A DNA stretch of 64,000 bases. Origin: Escherichia coli (GTDB lineage: Bacteria; Pseudomonadota; Gammaproteobacteria; Enterobacterales; Enterobacteriaceae). The stretch is taken from the NCBI RefSeq assembly GCF_030013205.1, contig NZ_CP122648.1, one strand, 5' to 3'. The stretch's first letter is position 1, and each line of letters begins with the position of its first letter. The translations under genes were made by a program, and so were the position numbers. Positions 11,339 to 62,395 of the stretch are shown piece after piece. Below the pieces are notes generated by a model. It made no database searches. It was not told the DNA's origin and saw nothing but the letters and a program-made list of their open reading frames with translations.

Positions 11339-11426
11339 GGTGAGGTGTCCGAGTGGCTGAAGGAGCACGCCTGGAAAGTGTGTATACGGCAACGTATCGG
11401 GGGTTCGAATCCCCCCCTCACCGCCA
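11339..11426 (+). tRNA. serW: tRNA-Ser (anticodon GGA), 88 nt
   Basis: GGTGAGGTGTCCGAGTGGCTGAAGGAGCACGCCTGGAAAGTGTGTATACGGCAACGTATCGGGGGTTCGAATCCCCCCCTCACCGCCA. It has a long variable arm, a GGA anticodon loop and a 3' CCA. Confidence 0.95.
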
Positions 11427-11587
11427 TATTCAAAGAAGAGCTCGTACGAAAGTAGGGGCTTTTTTTTCGCATATTGCACACACCGGGGGGATGAGAAGCC
11501 CCGACCGGGGTTCGACAACTGGCGCAGCCAGTTGGACAGACCACGAACACAGTGAGTGGGCTGCCCGCAGGGCGAGCGAAGCGAGTC

Positions 11588-11650
11588 AATCCCCCCCTCA
11601 CCGCCATATTTAAAGAAAAACTCGTACGAAAGTACGAGTTTTTTTTCGCA
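11588..11650 (+). repeat. Duplicate of the serW 3' end plus its downstream terminator (att-like scar)
   Basis: aatccccccctcaccgccatatttaaagaaaaactcgtacgaaagtacgagttttttttcgcat matches 11408-11472 with a few mismatches. The two copies are 180 bp apart. Confidence 0.85.
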
Positions 11651-19824: not shown

Positions 19825-21642
19825 TTAATTTTTGCTATCGTCATTAGTGACCGATACACATGATGGCATCCAGTCTTCTGATTCCTCCGTCAGTGTCACG
19901 TTTGAACGCAAACCGTGCTTCGTTTTCCGTTTCATATACTCCCTGCCATATTCCGCCATTGCCCCCGGCATATCTTTACCGAAGCGCGTCAGTGTTACAG
20001 GTTTACCAAACCCATGTGCCCTCATATAAGCCAGATAGGCATGATAGAGATACCTGCGTGGGCTGAATGGCACAATTTCAGCATTACCCACTAACAGGCC
20101 ATCACACATTACCGACGCCATGAGATAGCCGCAGAAGTCCACCAGCGAATCCCCCTCTCGCTTTATCGCCAGTGCTTCTTCAGATTTCTGCTGCTCATAT
20201 AACAGGCGTCTGGCTTCGTCCTGGTCAGCAAACCGTGTAAGCAGATGGCGAATCACTACCGCCAGCTCACCTTCTATTTTTTCCGCCAGCATTGGATCGC
20301 GTTCGTTCTCCGGTACAACTTCCGAAAAATTGAATATCACCCGACGACGTGAGATCCCCCCGCTGCGGTCACTGAATGACATGGCGTTATTGTTAACCGC
20401 CAGCACTACTGCCGGAATACGCGTTGAGTAGGGGGCTTTGTGTTTCGGGTCAATTGCCACCTTGTCACCGCCTGTAATGGCCTTAATTCCTGCCCCATCA
20501 CCAGCGTAGCGGGTCATATCCGGCATGATAATCAGCGAAAAGCCAACCACTAACGCGCGTTCCCTTGCATCTTCCAGCGCCTTCATGCTTGCCGATACTG
20601 TGTTGGCCTTACCCGCCAGCATGGTGCAAATCTCCGCCATCACGCTTTTACCACTTCCCCCTGGACCTGTTACCTCAATGAATAACTGCCAGTCGTACCG
20701 GTTCGCCAGCACCATGAATAATGCAGCCAGTACGCGATCCGCCTTGCGGTCATTCTCAGCCACCGAACGGCGTAACCACTTCCAGAAATTCGGCGCATGT
20801 GTTGCCAGCGTTTCCCCCTCTGCTGGTGGGCTGAAAGGTAATTCACTGGCAATTAACAACCAGTCGTTTTTGTTATGCTCCCGAAAATTACCTGTTCTGG
20901 TATCAAATACCCCGTTACTGAATCCAATCAGGTTACGGGCTGTATTCCCCATAACAGGCAAACTTAACTTCATGGTATCGACCGCCGATTTAATGGCGTT
21001 CTGCGAATAGCTGATCTCCGCATCAATGAAAATCTGTGCCATAGCTCGCTGTAATTCTTTATCCTGTACTGGCTCCCATACAACGCCGTTGTAATGGTGA
21101 ACAGTGTCAGAGTCAGCATGAATCGCCAGTTCACCGCCATAATGTGCCAGGAGAACTTCGCCGCGTTGACTTGCTCCCATCTGGTTAAGCGCCAGTGATG
21201 AAGCGTTATCGTCTTTTACCCGCTCTTTTTTCTTTACAGGCAGTTCAACTACCTTTTTCTTTTCCGCCTGCTCTGCCCGTTCACGTTCCAGATATTCGCG
21301 CCAGTTCTCCCGTTTCTGGCTGTGCATTCCTTCAGGGTAATAATCAGCATCCCTGACACCTGCCGCTGCCAGTTTCTGCCCGATGGTATTAACAAGCCCC
21401 GGACGCAATAACCCCGCCTGGTAGAGACGCACGCGATAGCGTCCGTCCGGTACGATTTGCAGGTTGTCCAGTTCGGCAAGTTGTTGCTCTCCAAGCCAGA
21501 CAGGTGGCACGTTATCGCCAGCCAGTCGCCCGTCCTGTTCCTGCCACTGCTTCGCATGTGCCCACGCATCACTACCCGCAAAAATGATGACTTCCGTCAT
21601 TTTGTCACGCGGCTGGTGTTTTAAATTTGGCGCTTTTTTCAT
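19825..21642 (-). CDS. P4-alpha-type primase/helicase (about 605 aa)
   Basis: Walker A VTGPGGSGKS, with a D5-N/P4-family C-terminal helicase layout. I chose the MKKAPNLK start because it is ATGA-coupled to the upstream stop; the track ORF starts 15 nt earlier. Confidence 0.8.
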   Translation of the reverse strand: MKKAPNLKHQPRDKMTEVIIFAGSDAWAHAKQWQEQDGRLAGDNVPPVWLGEQQLAELDNLQIVPDGRYRVRLYQAGLLRPGLVNTIGQKLAAAGVRDADYYPEGMHSQKRENWREYLERERAEQAEKKKVVELPVKKKERVKDDNASSLALNQMGASQRGEVLLAHYGGELAIHADSDTVHHYNGVVWEPVQDKELQRAMAQIFIDAEISYSQNAIKSAVDTMKLSLPVMGNTARNLIGFSNGVFDTRTGNFREHNKNDWLLIASELPFSPPAEGETLATHAPNFWKWLRRSVAENDRKADRVLAALFMVLANRYDWQLFIEVTGPGGSGKSVMAEICTMLAGKANTVSASMKALEDARERALVVGFSLIIMPDMTRYAGDGAGIKAITGGDKVAIDPKHKAPYSTRIPAVVLAVNNNAMSFSDRSGGISRRRVIFNFSEVVPENERDPMLAEKIEGELAVVIRHLLTRFADQDEARRLLYEQQKSEEALAIKREGDSLVDFCGYLMASVMCDGLLVGNAEIVPFSPRRYLYHAYLAYMRAHGFGKPVTLTRFGKDMPGAMAEYGREYMKRKTKHGLRSNVTLTEESEDWMPSCVSVTNDDSKN

Positions 21643-21938
21643 TTCGGCTCTCTCCACGCGGCAATCATGTTTTTCAGTTCCTGCAGTTTTTTATCCACAT
21701 CCACACGTGACACATGGTTATTTCTGGAAGTCGGGATTTCCCGCCGGAATCTGCTAATAAAGATCTCCACGTTCAGCGAACTATGAAATGAATAGCCATC
21801 ACGAATAAAATACACACGGTCAAACATCAGTTCTTTTACCGTTACTCTGTTACCGTTCTTATCCAGATAAATAGCGCCGGGGATAATTTTGGGGTGTGCA
21901 TAACCGCTGGCAGTCAAGCCAGATAAATATGTTCTCAT
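21639..21938 (-). CDS. Hypothetical protein (99 aa)
   Basis: The ORF is in operon register and is coupled to the primase gene. I assign no family. Confidence 0.55.
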   Translation of the reverse strand: MRTYLSGLTASGYAHPKIIPGAIYLDKNGNRVTVKELMFDRVYFIRDGYSFHSSLNVEIFISRFRREIPTSRNNHVSRVDVDKKLQELKNMIAAWREPK

Positions 21939-21944
21939 GATTAT

Positions 21945-22265
21945 TTATCCCCGATTTGAATCAGTATTCGCTTTCTTTATGGCATTTAATGCATCTGTGG
22001 CATTTTCAATGGTGCACCGTAACGAAATATCAAACTGCCCAAGCATTGCCAGTAACAAACCGATATTACCCATATCAATGCGCATGGCCTTTTCGTCATA
22101 GTCCTCATTTTCTGACGCATGCCACATCAGGCTACCAATTGACGCAACAGCCATTGATATATTGTCAGTAGCCCCATCAGCAGCGGAATAAACCTTTTTA
22201 GCAATATCATGCTCACAGTTAAAATGCGGATTAATCAGGTACTGGTAATTTGACATATCAGGCAT
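21945..22265 (-). CDS. Hypothetical protein (106 aa)
   Basis: The ORF is in operon register and overlaps the icd-like stop by 8 nt. I assign no family. Confidence 0.55.
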   Translation of the reverse strand: MPDMSNYQYLINPHFNCEHDIAKKVYSAADGATDNISMAVASIGSLMWHASENEDYDEKAMRIDMGNIGLLLAMLGQFDISLRCTIENATDALNAIKKANTDSNRG

Positions 22266-22461
22266 GGCACACCCCCTGACGAATACGGGCGGCGAATACC
22301 ATCACGTAGCCAGCCGGGGATTGCTGGCGTGCTTCCTGTTCACTGGTGGCCTCAATGGTAATCACGCGCGGTTGTGCCGTGCTCAGGGCGATAAAACGCC
22401 AGATGTATTTATTCAGGTTGTACGAGTCCCGCCCTTGCGGGTGTCTGGTATAATTTCTCAT
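22258..22461 (-). CDS. Icd-like (P4 cell-division-inhibitor-like) small protein (67 aa)
   Basis: This is the C-terminal part of the 302-aa track ORF: MRNYTRHPQGRDSYNLNKYIWRFIALSTAQPRVITIEATSEQEARQQSPAGYVMVFAARI... The YIWRF...AR pattern recalls Icd-like proteins of P4-type elements. The SD gagg precedes the ATG at 22461. Confidence 0.55.
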   Translation of the reverse strand: MRNYTRHPQGRDSYNLNKYIWRFIALSTAQPRVITIEATSEQEARQQSPAGYVMVFAARIRQGVCHA

Positions 22462-22575
22462 AGCTGCCTCGATACTGTTGCTATCGTTGGTGGTTAGACG
22501 CCCTGCATGTGTGCCACCACTGCGGGGCGTTGTTGCTTGGTGCATCGCACCATTCGTTTTTAACCTATCAGCAAG

Positions 22576-22630
22576 TGAATCGCACTTCAAGCCTTTCTCT
22601 GAAATTTTTTTTGTGTATACTGAATCGCAC
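22576..22630 (+). promoter_or_regulatory. Two direct TGAATCGCAC repeats, 45 bp apart, in the divergent control region (candidate operators)
   Basis: The 10-mer occurs at 22576-22585 and 22621-22630. The second copy lies between a TATACT -10-like hexamer and the SD of the RHH gene. Confidence 0.45.
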
Positions 22631-22651
22631 CAACTTAGAGAGGATTCAGTA

Positions 22652-22831
22652 ATGGCAACAGGTTCAACAAATAATAAGTCGCAACAGTTAAATGCCAGAT
22701 TCCCGCATGATGTTGTTGCAGACTTAGAAAAAAATTTAGATGAAGGTGAAAGCAAGGCGCAATTTATAGTTACTGCCGTTAAAGGCGAGATCAAACGCCG
22801 CCAGCGCCGCAAGGCCAAAGAGCAGGAGTAA
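22652..22831 (+). CDS. Ribbon-helix-helix (Arc/CopG-like) DNA-binding protein (59 aa); candidate island repressor
   Basis: MATGSTNNKSQQLNARFPHDVVADLEKNLDEGESKAQFIVTAVKGEIKRRQ... shows a beta-alpha-alpha pattern. The SD gagagga lies upstream of the ATG at 22652. Confidence 0.6.
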   Translation: MATGSTNNKSQQLNARFPHDVVADLEKNLDEGESKAQFIVTAVKGEIKRRQRRKAKEQE

Positions 22832-22873
22832 CCATCACCAGCGCCGTGGTGTGAGTAACTACGGCGCATTGCT

Positions 22874-23062
22874 ATGCAGGACAACACAATGACCGATAAA
22901 GAATTGACCAAAACATTATCACCGGCACGGAAAAGACGGCGCAGAAAGATAGAGCATGAATCAGAAAGATTCGCGCCATGTGCTTTTGCTCTTGAGAAAT
23001 TCCTTAAAGAGCACAGGAAAAAGCTCTCGTTGCAAACCTTGGAACGAACCAAATCTGACTGA
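22874..23062 (+). CDS. Hypothetical basic small protein (62 aa)
   Basis: It is co-directional with the RHH gene and followed by a strong terminator. Confidence 0.45.
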   Translation: MQDNTMTDKELTKTLSPARKRRRRKIEHESERFAPCAFALEKFLKEHRKKLSLQTLERTKSD

Positions 23063-23129
23063 TCACATTGCCCACCAGCCGCAAATGTGGCATTGTTGGT
23101 GATGCGTTCAAGTTTAGTGTGTATCCATT

Positions 23130-23158
23130 GGCGACCGCCCCCGGTCGCCTTTGTTTTA
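23130..23158 (+). terminator. Rho-independent terminator of the rightward two-gene unit
   Basis: ggcgaccg-cccc-cggtcgcc followed by tttgtttta. Confidence 0.75.
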
Positions 23159-23176
23159 TATGTCATATGCTCCCCT

Positions 23177-23386
23177 TTACGCTGCCTTGCCTGAATTAAT
23201 GCGATCCCGGCTTTTAACCCATTCCATAACCTCGGACAGCAGCCAACCTACAGAACGACCGCCCAGATTACGGCGTGACGGGAAATTCCCTTTTTTCTCC
23301 AGTTCATAGCGTGTAGTGCGACACACTCCAGTTAACTTACGACATTCATCCTCACGGATTACGCGATCTTCATTTATTTCACGCAT
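23177..23386 (-). CDS. alpA: AlpA-family transcriptional regulator / excision activator (69 aa)
   Basis: The HTH ...CRKLTGVCRTTRYELEKKGNFPSRRNLGGRSVGWLLSEVMEWV is typical of the AlpA family. It lies downstream of int on the same strand. Confidence 0.85.
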   Translation of the reverse strand: MREINEDRVIREDECRKLTGVCRTTRYELEKKGNFPSRRNLGGRSVGWLLSEVMEWVKSRDRINSGKAA

Positions 23387-23805
23387 ACAAAAACCTACAT
23401 AAAAAATTACGTATATAAACTTTTCTCTTAGCTGTAGATATATGAGATCGGATATTACTTAGATTCTTTTTTCACCTCTTAAATTAAAAACACAACCTTG
23501 CTAAAGGCTTTGTTCGCTAAGGTTCGTAGAAGCTCGTTAGTGTTTAAAATCGTGTCACGAGTTTTTAAGCGATGCAACAAAAAATGTCGTTACTTGGCAT
23601 TACGCTTGAATTATCTCATTAAAAACAAATAGATAAACCATCAAGTGTTGGAACAATCAAGAAACAGAGAATAAAAGTTCAGAAGAAGACATTCCAATTT
23701 TTTGATGGTTGACATATATAAAGCGAAGATATTTGCAGATATTTTCCGATATTCTACGATTTATTCACGGCTGTAATCTCTTAAAGAAAAAACAGCCGTA
23801 ATTTG

Positions 23806-25053
23806 TCAAGAATTTTGGGGGTAAATTCGCGGGGTCATAACAACGATTTTTTCATCATTGTTCTGGAGAAGCTCGAGACGGTCTACCCATAGATTAAGAG
23901 CATCACGTTTTGCATCAAGATAACGGGAGTGGTTATAGACTCGTTGCATCCCCGGCATCTGGTGGGCGGTAAGCTGCTCGACAATATGCGGATCCACGCC
24001 TAAATCGTTCAGCATGGTTGTAAATGTGTGCCGGATGTCATGCAACGACCAGGGGGCTTGATTAATGCGTCTGTGTGCCGTTCTTCCGTACTCTGCTACG
24101 GATGATTGCCCTTTCAGTTCTCCAAGCAATAAGCCCGTGTGCCTGTTCTTCTCCACCAGCTTCATGACAAACGGCAAGATCGCTTCCGGTATTGGCCTGA
24201 ATATTGCTACCTTCGTTTTGCTGTGTTCTTTCGGCACAGTCCAGAGCATTTCTTTAAAATCCCATTCCTGAACCTCGGAGCGTCTTAGCTCAGTGGTACG
24301 GCATCCAAAGACAATCAGAAGGCGAATTAAGGCGCTGTAGTACGGCGGGAAAATTTTTTCATCCAGTGCGCGGAGTAGCTCGCCAAGCTCCTTGTTTGTT
24401 AGCACTCGCTCGCTTATTTCTGCTTTTTTTCCCACATCACCTACGACCATATCATCAAGAACGTTACTGACGGCGTAGCGACGTTTACGGCAGTACTTAA
24501 GCGCCTGCTTGCATACCTGCAACAAAAAGCCGGCTGATACCGGATTACGCTTAGCAAGCTGGTCAAAACAGGCCAGCCAGTGGCGTAACTCGCATTTATC
24601 CAGCGGCATAGCACCAATCTGGCTGATTATGTGCTTATTGATCCGGCTTTTCAGTGATTCGTGGTCAGTGCGCTTTTCCTTCGCGTATGACTCAAGCCAG
24701 TAAGTGATCGCGTCCTTAACCGTTACAGGTGCTAACGCTTCCTGCACTGTGTGATTAAGCTCATGGCGTGGATTTTTCCCCTCCGCCAGCCAGGCGCGAC
24801 ACTGTGCCGCTTTTTCTCTGGCTGCTTTCAGGCTCAGATCGGGATAGTTGCCCAGTCTCAGGCGTTCCGGTGATACCTGCCTGCCAGTTCCGGCCCTGTA
24901 AGTGAAATACCAGGTTAACAGGCCATTGGTTGAATGCCTTACGCTAAGGTTGCCACCATCATTAAAAAAGGTGTTTTTTGTGGTTGGTGATCCGCTTAAT
25001 TTTCGTAAAAGAGTGTCGCTAAGTCTATGAATTGCCCTGCTCATGTTTCGCAT
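23806..25053 (-). CDS. int: P4-type tyrosine integrase (415 aa)
   Basis: The catalytic motifs are present (...LHDIRHTF..., ...VYNHSRY...), with a DUF4102-like N-terminus. An alternative start (MSRAIH) lies at 25044. Confidence 0.92.
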   Translation of the reverse strand: MRNMSRAIHRLSDTLLRKLSGSPTTKNTFFNDGGNLSVRHSTNGLLTWYFTYRAGTGRQVSPERLRLGNYPDLSLKAAREKAAQCRAWLAEGKNPRHELNHTVQEALAPVTVKDAITYWLESYAKEKRTDHESLKSRINKHIISQIGAMPLDKCELRHWLACFDQLAKRNPVSAGFLLQVCKQALKYCRKRRYAVSNVLDDMVVGDVGKKAEISERVLTNKELGELLRALDEKIFPPYYSALIRLLIVFGCRTTELRRSEVQEWDFKEMLWTVPKEHSKTKVAIFRPIPEAILPFVMKLVEKNRHTGLLLGELKGQSSVAEYGRTAHRRINQAPWSLHDIRHTFTTMLNDLGVDPHIVEQLTAHQMPGMQRVYNHSRYLDAKRDALNLWVDRLELLQNNDEKIVVMTPRIYPQNS

Positions 25054-62236: not shown

Positions 62237-62315
62237 GCCACTGCTTTTCTTTGATGTCCCCATTTTGTGGAGCCCATCAACCCCGCCATTTCGGTTCAAG
62301 GTTGGTGGGTTTTTT
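62237..62315 (+). ncRNA. rybB: Sigma-E-dependent Hfq-binding sRNA RybB (~79 nt)
   Basis: GCCACTGCTTTTCTTTGATGTCCCCATTTTGTGGAGCCCATCAACCCCGCCATTTCGGTTCAAGGTTGGTGGGTTTTTT. I recognise this as RybB, including its terminator hairpin and U-tail. Confidence 0.93.
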
Positions 62316-62395
62316 GTTGCCTAAAATTTATGCCTTTTAAAATCATGATATTAGAAGCACTGTTTTTTAACGATGGCGACAAAATGGCGGCAGCG

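Follow-up and report, generated by a model that had tools for sequence, protein, structure and literature searches.

The region considered here lies in a 64,000-nt stretch of an Escherichia coli chromosome (contig NZ_CP122648.1; this whole stretch is called the window, and coordinates are positions in it unless another locus is named), within an island of about 10.6 kb between clpS and yljB-cspD. Between alpA and the primase gene of the island, the plus strand carries a short unit of two genes, ylcI and orf57, while on the minus strand an icd-like gene is preceded in frame by a long open reading frame (ORF) that runs antisense to both of them and begins just past the alpA stop (Table 1). Loci from other species (34), from IMG/VR (80) and from E. 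coli (about 15) were gathered for comparison, giving 100 distinct cassettes. The combined data support a switch in which a ribbon-helix-helix (RHH) repressor/operator system is joined with a P4-type nested leader, with a conserved antisense overlap between the two.

Table 1. Features of the alpA-primase region and of the island (O1-O3, putative operators; P_L and P_R, leftward and rightward promoters; SD, Shine-Dalgarno sequence; PGAP, Prokaryotic Genome Annotation Pipeline).
Feature	Position	Strand	Remarks
ylcI, 59 aa, proposed island repressor	22652..22831	plus	SD GAGG 8 nt upstream
O1, GTGCATCGCAC	22540..22550		extended palindrome GGTG..CACC; just downstream of predicted leftward promoter
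O2, GTGAATCGCAC	22575..22585		extended AAGTG..CACTT; in P_L spacer, adjoining -35
O3, CTGAATCGCAC	22620..22630		overlaps -10 end and start region of ylcI promoter
P_L, predicted leftward promoter	22562..22590	minus	TTGAAG (22590..22585), 17 nt, TAGGTT (22567..22562); read from sequence
P_R -10 TATACT (ylcI promoter)	22616..22621	plus	T-rich spacer, weak -35
icd-like, 67 aa, short nested form	22258..22461	minus	own SD GAGG; NF033153 at 70.1 bits; annotated by PGAP
Long ORF, 302 aa	22258..23166	minus	antisense to orf57, ylcI and operators; in frame with icd-like
alpA/long-ORF junction	23164..23179	minus	alpA stop TAA 23179..23177, SD-like AGGGGAG 23176..23170, ATG 23166..23164
orf57, small basic protein	22889..23062	plus	co-transcribed with ylcI; 62 aa if from 22874; 57 aa in PGAP
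Intrinsic terminator of ylcI-orf57 unit, GGCGACCGCCCCCGGTCGCC + TTTGTTTT	23130..23158	plus	scan: 8 stem pairs (7 GC), then TTTGTTTT
GC-rich hairpin in 5' untranslated region (UTR) of P_L transcript	22498..22530		between O1 and icd-like start; T-rich tract follows on plus strand
alpA, 69 aa	23177-23386	minus	Pfam Phage_AlpA 2.9e-16
int	23806-25053	minus	
primase	19825-21657	minus	
106-aa ORF (p106), DUF4222 gene, SSB, prohead-protease/capsid fusion, DUF1441 gene		minus	other island genes
BRO-N/AntA/AntB-type antirepressor or variant genes	L040 2417-2998, L041 2830-3630, L044 2583-3161, L047 2518-3099		sister islands

The ylcI-orf57 unit and the predicted fold of YlcI

The 59-aa product of ylcI was matched by the NCBIfam family YlcI/YnfO (NF041551) over residues 9-50 with 63.3 bits, the curated cutoff being 30, and the Pfam family DUF3950 was matched by more distant members of the family only. 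Homologues with 60-100% identity were found in Klebsiella, Salmonella, Enterobacter, Morganella, Proteus, Hafnia, Yersinia, Pectobacterium, Xenorhabdus and Cronobacter. When YlcI and the Icd-like protein were searched with tblastn against 50,697 phage genomes, essentially only two satellite-sized records were returned, and thus the YlcI family is one of satellites and not of true phages. In the literature searched, YlcI/YnfO was described solely as an uncharacterised prophage-associated protein, and neither a function for it nor a repressor of Gram-negative phage-inducible chromosomal islands (PICIs) was reported.

No significant match was obtained with profiles of the YlcI family (hmmsearch) against the PDB, nor in Pfam. 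A first AlphaFold2 (AF2) model from a shallow alignment of 32 sequences, with a predicted local distance difference test score (pLDDT) of 69, a helical N-terminus and no useful matches in Foldseek, was rejected and replaced by a model from an alignment enlarged with distant representatives. The latter reached a pLDDT of 90.7 and had an extended N-terminus followed by two helices, which is the strand-helix-helix arrangement of about 45 residues found in the RHH superfamily (Arc/MetJ/CopG). In the hhalign alignment of YlcI with Arc (P 2e-4), residues Q12, N14 and R16 fall on the base-contacting Q9, N11 and R13 of Arc. Sub-threshold, mutually consistent matches in the PDB were the ParB of pCXC100 (3no7, E 0.072) and a CopG-family protein (9kkd, E 1.1), and some members of the family had sub-threshold Pfam matches to CB_ParB_C (0.013), PSK_trans_fac (0.02) and RHH_1 (0.029). 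The model shows YlcI with a predicted RHH fold, as the original prediction had assumed for this ORF.

The slot of ylcI also holds other variants. Alleles of 101 aa in L003, L039, L041, L042 and L044 have a C-terminal extension of about 40 aa, which may be an added oligomerisation or effector-binding domain, and one extended allele has a faint PSK_trans_fac match. In E. coli O157 strain 180-PT54 (L002, 2320-2493), an unannotated 57-aa Arc-like ORF is found instead; this ORF is remotely homologous to YlcI (hhalign P 2.6e-5), matches Pfam Arc faintly and has its own pair of palindromic GGTAATTACC sites upstream. PGAP misses this repressor ORF and calls the antisense stretch an 'Icd-like pseudogene, missing C-terminus', which looks like a systematic mis-annotation across O157 genomes.

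As for the second gene of the unit, the ORF predicted originally (62 aa, 22874-23062) is present, and the conserved start is its second Met at 22889, giving a protein of 57 aa. It is intact in 12 E. coli loci with 52-100% aa identity and indels that are all multiples of three, it is confined to Escherichia and Shigella, and it matches phrog_21027 (1.9e-14). The ratio of nonsynonymous to synonymous polymorphism (pN/pS) in this region was lowest in the frame of orf57 (0.36), followed by that of the long ORF (0.49), and it was about 1 in the remaining frames. That the unit ends at a strong terminator and converges on alpA was also borne out: the terminator was found by the scan, its hairpin is kept in the sister islands L004 and L040, and transcription of the unit would end before alpA. 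The terminator works in the plus direction only, as the minus strand has no U-tract, and it sits within codons 3-13 of the long ORF.

Putative operators, promoters and the proposed specificity cassette

The spacer from the icd-like ATG (22461) to the ylcI ATG (22652) is 190 bp long, and TGAATCGCAC is present in it in two exact copies, at 22576-22585 and 22621-22630. So far this agrees with the two direct repeats predicted originally; however, a third copy with one mismatch lies at 22540-22550, and the repeat unit is an 11-bp GTG-N5-CAC element occurring three times. As a word, the TGAATCGCAC 10-mer is not rare (9 matches with at most one mismatch in the 64 kb, 6.0 expected), and no excess over chance was detected elsewhere in the window or the island. 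The significance of the sites comes from the conservation of their positions across species and not from their count.

Throughout the 100 cassettes, the layout of the 130 nt upstream of ylcI is constant, with the -10 TATACT followed directly by O3. On the opposite strand, the order is equally constant: a -35 (TTGAAG or TTGACG), a spacer containing O2, a -10 of the form TAnnnT (frequently TATAGT or TATACT), and O1 immediately beyond it. The -10 of P_R is TATACT, rarely TATATT or TATAGT, in nearly all cassettes, and equivalents of P_L were called by the promoter scanner in L004 (TTGAAG-18-TATACT), L019 (TTGAAG-18-TATAGT) and L040 (TTGACG-17-TAGTAT). The position of O3 on the ylcI promoter suggests autoregulation.

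Within a cassette, one 5-bp core is common to all three sites, the positions of which are fixed, and from one cassette to another this core varies in concert with YlcI residues 11-17, which form the N-terminal strand of the model. Altogether 26 strand motifs were found. QQLNARF goes with GTGAATCGCAC in 45 cassettes from at least six genera, while QALKARV is paired with GTGTGGCCCAC, KKLEARV with GTGTCAGCCAC, QMTTVRI with GTGAAATACAC, QKMSARV with CTGGCACCCAG and QKLQARA with GGATTCCA. Mosaic loci are informative about the binder: L003 has an Icd-like protein 97% and an orf57 product 85% identical to those of the window and yet other operators, and in L042 alpA, int, primase and p106 are 99% and orf57 100% identical, but YlcI only 49%, and the operators are again different. 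Because the mosaics keep Icd-like, AlpA and orf57 while the operators differ, these proteins are excluded as the binder. Based on this covariation, YlcI very probably binds the GTG-N5-CAC sites, and it is likely that it represses P_L as well. We conclude that ylcI and its putative operators behave as an exchangeable repressor/operator specificity cassette. The repressor-type divergent switch of the original prediction is thus upheld, with three sites overlapping back-to-back promoters and cores that track the strand motif of YlcI.

Several other structures were observed in and near the spacer. A perfect 9-bp inverted repeat (TACTGAATC/GATTCAGTA, 22618-22626 and 22643-22651) surrounds the SD of ylcI; a function of this pairing was considered and rejected, since the downstream arm is kept in cassettes with other operators, and the repeat is probably incidental. 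Folding of the minus-strand RNA of 22440-22558 gave -32.8 kcal/mol (z -2.2), and a similar hairpin is present in L002. On the plus strand, the GC-rich hairpin in 22498-22540 is succeeded by TGTTGCTT, and the O1 palindrome after it by TTCGTTTTT; both resemble rightward terminators and lie at the left edge of the operator region, and similar arrangements of a hairpin and a T-run occur in other cassettes. These structures might shield the promoter of ylcI or play a structural part in the 5' UTR of the icd-like gene. Inside ylcI, a leftward sigma-70-like site (CTGGCA-16-TATTAT, 22671-22698, minus strand) could be an additional antisense promoter.

The long minus-strand frame

In the window, the 234 codons upstream of the icd ATG contain no stops, whereas the two remaining minus frames have 16 and 10. 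The icd frame is equally free of stops over the 690 nt upstream of the icd-like ATG in L002, L003, L020, L039, L040, L041, L043 and L045, and in these nine loci, the window included, each of the other two minus frames has 10-20 stops. In L004, L042, L044 and L018 the icd frame is interrupted, and another minus frame has 0-1 stops. Under a null model with synonymous resampling of ylcI and orf57 and shuffling of the sequence that is non-coding on the plus strand, the probability of finding no stops was 8e-4 for the window and 0.0002-0.0035 in 11 loci. The 351 nt outside the plus-strand genes contribute most of the signal; about 5.7 in-frame stops were expected there and none was found (P 0.002).

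Over the 100 cassettes, the antisense frame that shares its wobble positions with ylcI has a median open length of 819 nt and reaches at least 600 nt in 80 of them, compared to a median of 126 nt for the other antisense frames. Ten long genes of the window served as a control; in their corresponding antisense frame the median open span was 141 nt, and 2.2% of the spans reached at least 600 nt. The open frame is always the one whose wobble positions coincide with those of ylcI, which places the least constraint on both strands. Its ATG is located 10 nt past the alpA stop, a junction kept in L004, L039, L042, L045 and L046, and in L019 (Tenebrionibacter) the start codon and the alpA stop overlap in a GTGA. 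More generally, 57 of 80 long ORFs have their first ATG close to the end of a preceding ORF of at least 50 codons, at -45..+12 nt from its stop.

These comparisons show that selection keeps the frame open in repressor cassettes which are not homologous to one another, and the long ORF is likely to be translated under induction. The original prediction held the 302-aa ORF to be an artefact apart from its last 67 codons. These codons are indeed Icd-like (NF033153), but the difference in open length from the control and the SD-ATG following alpA contradict this claim for the remainder. In other strains, PGAP has repeatedly placed 'Icd-like pseudogenes' over this stretch. A strong intrinsic terminator (AACACGCGCCCTGCGTGTT then TTTTTTG) was seen on the minus strand of L004 (2857-2875) between the end of the long ORF and the icd-like gene, and it could be an attenuator requiring antitermination.

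The island, the proposed switch and known systems

The island is a Gram-negative PICI of the EcCICFT073 type, with co-oriented genes in the order int - alpA - replication (primase) - late/packaging, as in PICIs of about 10-15 kb, and a sister element has been deposited as a circular 10,790-bp 'plasmid'. The region was matched in 2082 of 5426 complete E. coli genomes (about 38%). The same synteny was found in 34 loci of about 20 further enterobacterial genera, the module with ylcI being always between alpA and the replication genes. The layout is typical of Gram-negative PICIs and not, as had been predicted originally, a departure from them, since the prototype EcCICFT073 itself has alpA, orf57, ylcI and the icd-like gene and so many E. 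coli genomes match. In EcCICFT073, induction and packaging dependent on a helper phage have been demonstrated, AlpA is the activator of the island cycle and is induced by the helper phage, and AlpA activates a reporter fused to 'ORF3' (PMC6092414), which is compatible with read-through from the alpA promoter into the long ORF. The repressor was not identified in this founding paper of 2018 (PMC6092414), and YlcI is a candidate for it on account of the sites described above. In Pseudomonas, AlpA is a processive antiterminator (PMC7969949, PMC9371919).

In many sister islands, alpA and the long ORF are separated by an antirepressor gene of the BRO-N or AntA/AntB type, and in L047 a SWIM zinc-finger gene replaces ylcI. 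In Pectobacterium and Dickeya (L008-L015), a ylcI/icd-like pair with identical GTGAATCGCAC operators was observed in the order icd-like, int, alpA on the same strand, which may be a rearranged or tandem element. Elsewhere in the window, a tRNA-Ser(GGA) gene (11339-11426) is followed by an Rfam RtT match (11471-11606; 47.2 bits, threshold 45), RtT being usually tied to the tyrT operon, and a full-length Rfam match (104 bits) marks the gene of the small RNA RybB at 62240-62318.

Binding to DNA, repression, the activity of the promoters, translation of the long ORF and a role of Rho are our inferences, and we propose the following mechanism. Dimers of YlcI would read the variable 5-bp core of the three operators with the N-terminal beta-strand (residues 11-17), inserting a two-stranded sheet into the major groove; the concerted variation of these residues and the cores supports this indirectly. 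In the quiescent island, YlcI on O1 and O2 would block P_L and so prevent expression of the primase operon and of the icd-like gene, which is potentially toxic, while YlcI on O3 would limit its own synthesis, and the ylcI-orf57 transcript would end at the one-way terminator (23158), short of alpA. During induction, the helper phage would switch on alpA, and transcription from the alpA promoter would proceed leftward through a leader of about 900 nt, which translation of the long ORF would shield from Rho-dependent termination; it is the selection for the open frame that points to this protection. Because the translated leader would escape Rho, the replication genes could be expressed independently of P_L. 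The leftward transcription would also collide with that of ylcI and yield RNA antisense to it, which would tip the switch. Between islands, ylcI with its operators would be swapped as a specificity (immunity) cassette. We consider the model as a whole, i.e., the RHH switch with the P4-type nested leader, to be reasonably probable. More tentative, and in our estimate somewhat short of an even chance, is its boldest form, in which at least 100 Enterobacterales cassettes have the repressor gene embedded antisense, together with its promoter and operators, in a translated leader, the repressor is both circumvented and shut off by translation-coupled transcription arriving from the alpA promoter (a collision toggle), and YlcI/YnfO is the master repressor.

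Several observations weigh against this model. P_R has no recognisable -35, and the -10 of P_L in the window is weak (TAGGTT, 3/6) and was not called by the promoter scanner. In Pectobacterium, the antisense frame is open for just about 300-345 nt and the gene order is different, and in L004 and L042 the long ORF ends just before icd and is not in frame with it. The product of the long ORF has an antisense-like composition, rich in Cys, Ser and Leu, and no Pfam domain outside the Icd part. The pN/pS values cannot separate the strands (0.36 and 0.49) and are not decisive for the coding strand, because the wobble positions coincide. Finally, ylcI and the operators lie within about 100 bp, and co-inheritance alone would link them; due to this close linkage, the argument for specificity rests on the concerted identity of the three sites and on the mosaic loci.

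The composition and the lack of domains would also fit a simple divergent RHH switch converging with alpA, in which the 302-aa ORF is a meaningless shadow except for its last 67 codons, and it is in line with this that PGAP annotates the 67-aa Icd-like gene alone here and that in 27% of trials the frame stayed open when just ylcI and orf57 were resampled synonymously. The stops missing from the plus-strand non-coding sequence make such a shadow unlikely, as do the open frame in non-homologous cassettes and other genera, the conserved SD-ATG abutting the alpA stop and the precedent of P4 eta/kil. If the frame is real, it could alternatively encode a protein whose sequence matters (of an Eta/Ash/Bro network), with ylcI overprinted inside it, and not mainly an anti-polarity leader. 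P4 Eta belongs to the Pfam family Phage_ASH (3.8e-23), the 130-aa N-terminal part of the EcCICFT073 long ORF has a faint Bro-N match (E 0.069), and the frame relation is always the one least constraining for both strands. We nevertheless find this improbable, since the stretches lying opposite different ylcI cassettes share no homology, icd and the long ORF are separate in L004 and L042, and in the window the long ORF starts directly after alpA with no N-terminal domain and no Pfam match. A leader kept open mainly for its translation remains our preferred reading.

Another explanation would be that ylcI and orf57 form an accessory module, such as an RHH-antitoxin/small-toxin pair or a moron, and that the repeats serve autoregulation only and do not control the island. 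This seems quite remote. YlcI has just a basic tail and no C-terminal toxin-binding extension, and there is no conserved cognate toxin downstream, as orf57 is confined to Escherichia and Shigella and ylcI stands alone with the same operators in most genera; moreover, O1 and O2 are on a conserved leftward promoter ahead of the replication operon, and the module is always between alpA and the replication genes. Short direct repeats are carried by the replication origins of satellites, and P4 and P1 use C4-type RNAs beside icd/kil (PMC10111431), so that the repeats might bind another factor (AlpA, the primase or an initiator at iterons, a helper protein) or immunity might be based on RNA (CI/C4). 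We give this the least credence, as the repeats differ between islands whose AlpA, primase and integrase are 97-99% identical, and they do not recur elsewhere in the island beyond chance. A C4/CI or isrK RNA upstream of icd was looked for and rejected: neither these nor any other Rfam family matched in 21800-23900 at E up to 5, and no such RNA was matched in the window at the gathering threshold. Repression by YlcI through the three operators remains the favoured explanation.

With 38% of complete E. coli genomes matching the module, Gram-negative PICIs are very common, and if true, a transcription-collision toggle would explain how they stay silent and then fire. The YlcI/YnfO family would gain a proposed fold, operator set and role, and the predicted specificity classes are possible orthogonal repressor/operator pairs. 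The overlap of the long ORF with ylcI would be among the better-supported long, evolutionarily maintained antisense gene overlaps in bacteria, and PICI regulation would be linked mechanistically to the P4 eta/kil paradigm. In practice, these results suggest caution with PGAP annotation, which is often wrong in this region ('Icd-like pseudogenes', the missed Arc-like repressor ORF of O157).

The closest known arrangement is that of satellite P4. There eta is translationally coupled to vis, kil is a nested short form expressed from the internal constitutive promoter PLE, and translation of the eta/kil region prevents premature termination, so that transcripts from the late promoter reach the replication genes (PMC10111431, section 20, citing Forti et al. 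1999). From the stop of vis, which is an AlpA homologue, the P4 frame remains open through the old 'cI ORF', kil included, and Kil (the C-terminal 65 aa) aligns weakly with the Icd-like domain (BLASTP E 0.057). In both systems, the AlpA-family gene is directly followed by a long ORF starting at or next to its stop and ending in frame with a short C-terminal form (the cell-toxic Kil, here Icd-like), with an internal promoter (PLE, here P_L) and with primase replication genes downstream. By this analogy, the long ORF is the apparent positional counterpart of eta, and the icd-like gene that of the nested kil. In contrast to the CI RNA of P4, a divergent RHH protein and DNA operators are found here and no C4-family match, and the repressor gene is antisense inside the long ORF. 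While P4 Eta is a Phage_ASH protein, the 302-aa product has no Pfam match at E up to 1, and the only link to Phage_ASH is that a homologue of window 23062-23163 is annotated as 'ash family protein' in another strain (H84).

The immI region of P22, with Arc and Mnt at Pant/Pmnt, resembles the present system in having operators over back-to-back promoters and in combining autoregulation with repression of a divergent, potentially harmful operon. Here, however, there is one repressor gene and three separated 11-bp sites in place of one 21-bp operator, the element is a satellite with a replication operon as the target, and the sequence similarity is sub-threshold. In the immI region of P1 (c4 RNA - icd - ant), an Icd-family gene is likewise the first translated gene of the repressed operon, and antirepressor (Bro/AntA) genes are present in the sister islands, but here there is no C4 RNA, the ant-like genes are upstream of the icd-like gene and control would be exerted by a protein.

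The K-12 proteins YlcI (DLP12) and YnfO (Qin) belong to the same family, NF041551, and K-12 YlcI has the strand-P-helix-loop-helix pattern. Their genes, however, lie beside nohD/nohA near cos in defective lambdoid prophages, the proteins are about 17% identical, and the sequence upstream of K-12 ylcI showed no array of three operators. EcCICFT073 shares with the window island the module of int, alpA, orf57, ylcI, icd-like, DUF4222, primase and SSB. Its YlcI/YnfO gene has the motif QALKARV, with GTGTGGCCCAC twice and CTGTCCCCCAC as operators, and its long ORF is 428 aa with a faint Bro-N-like segment fused at the N-terminus. The window island differs from it in the prohead protease/capsid fusion, the DUF1441 late region and the specificity of its ylcI.

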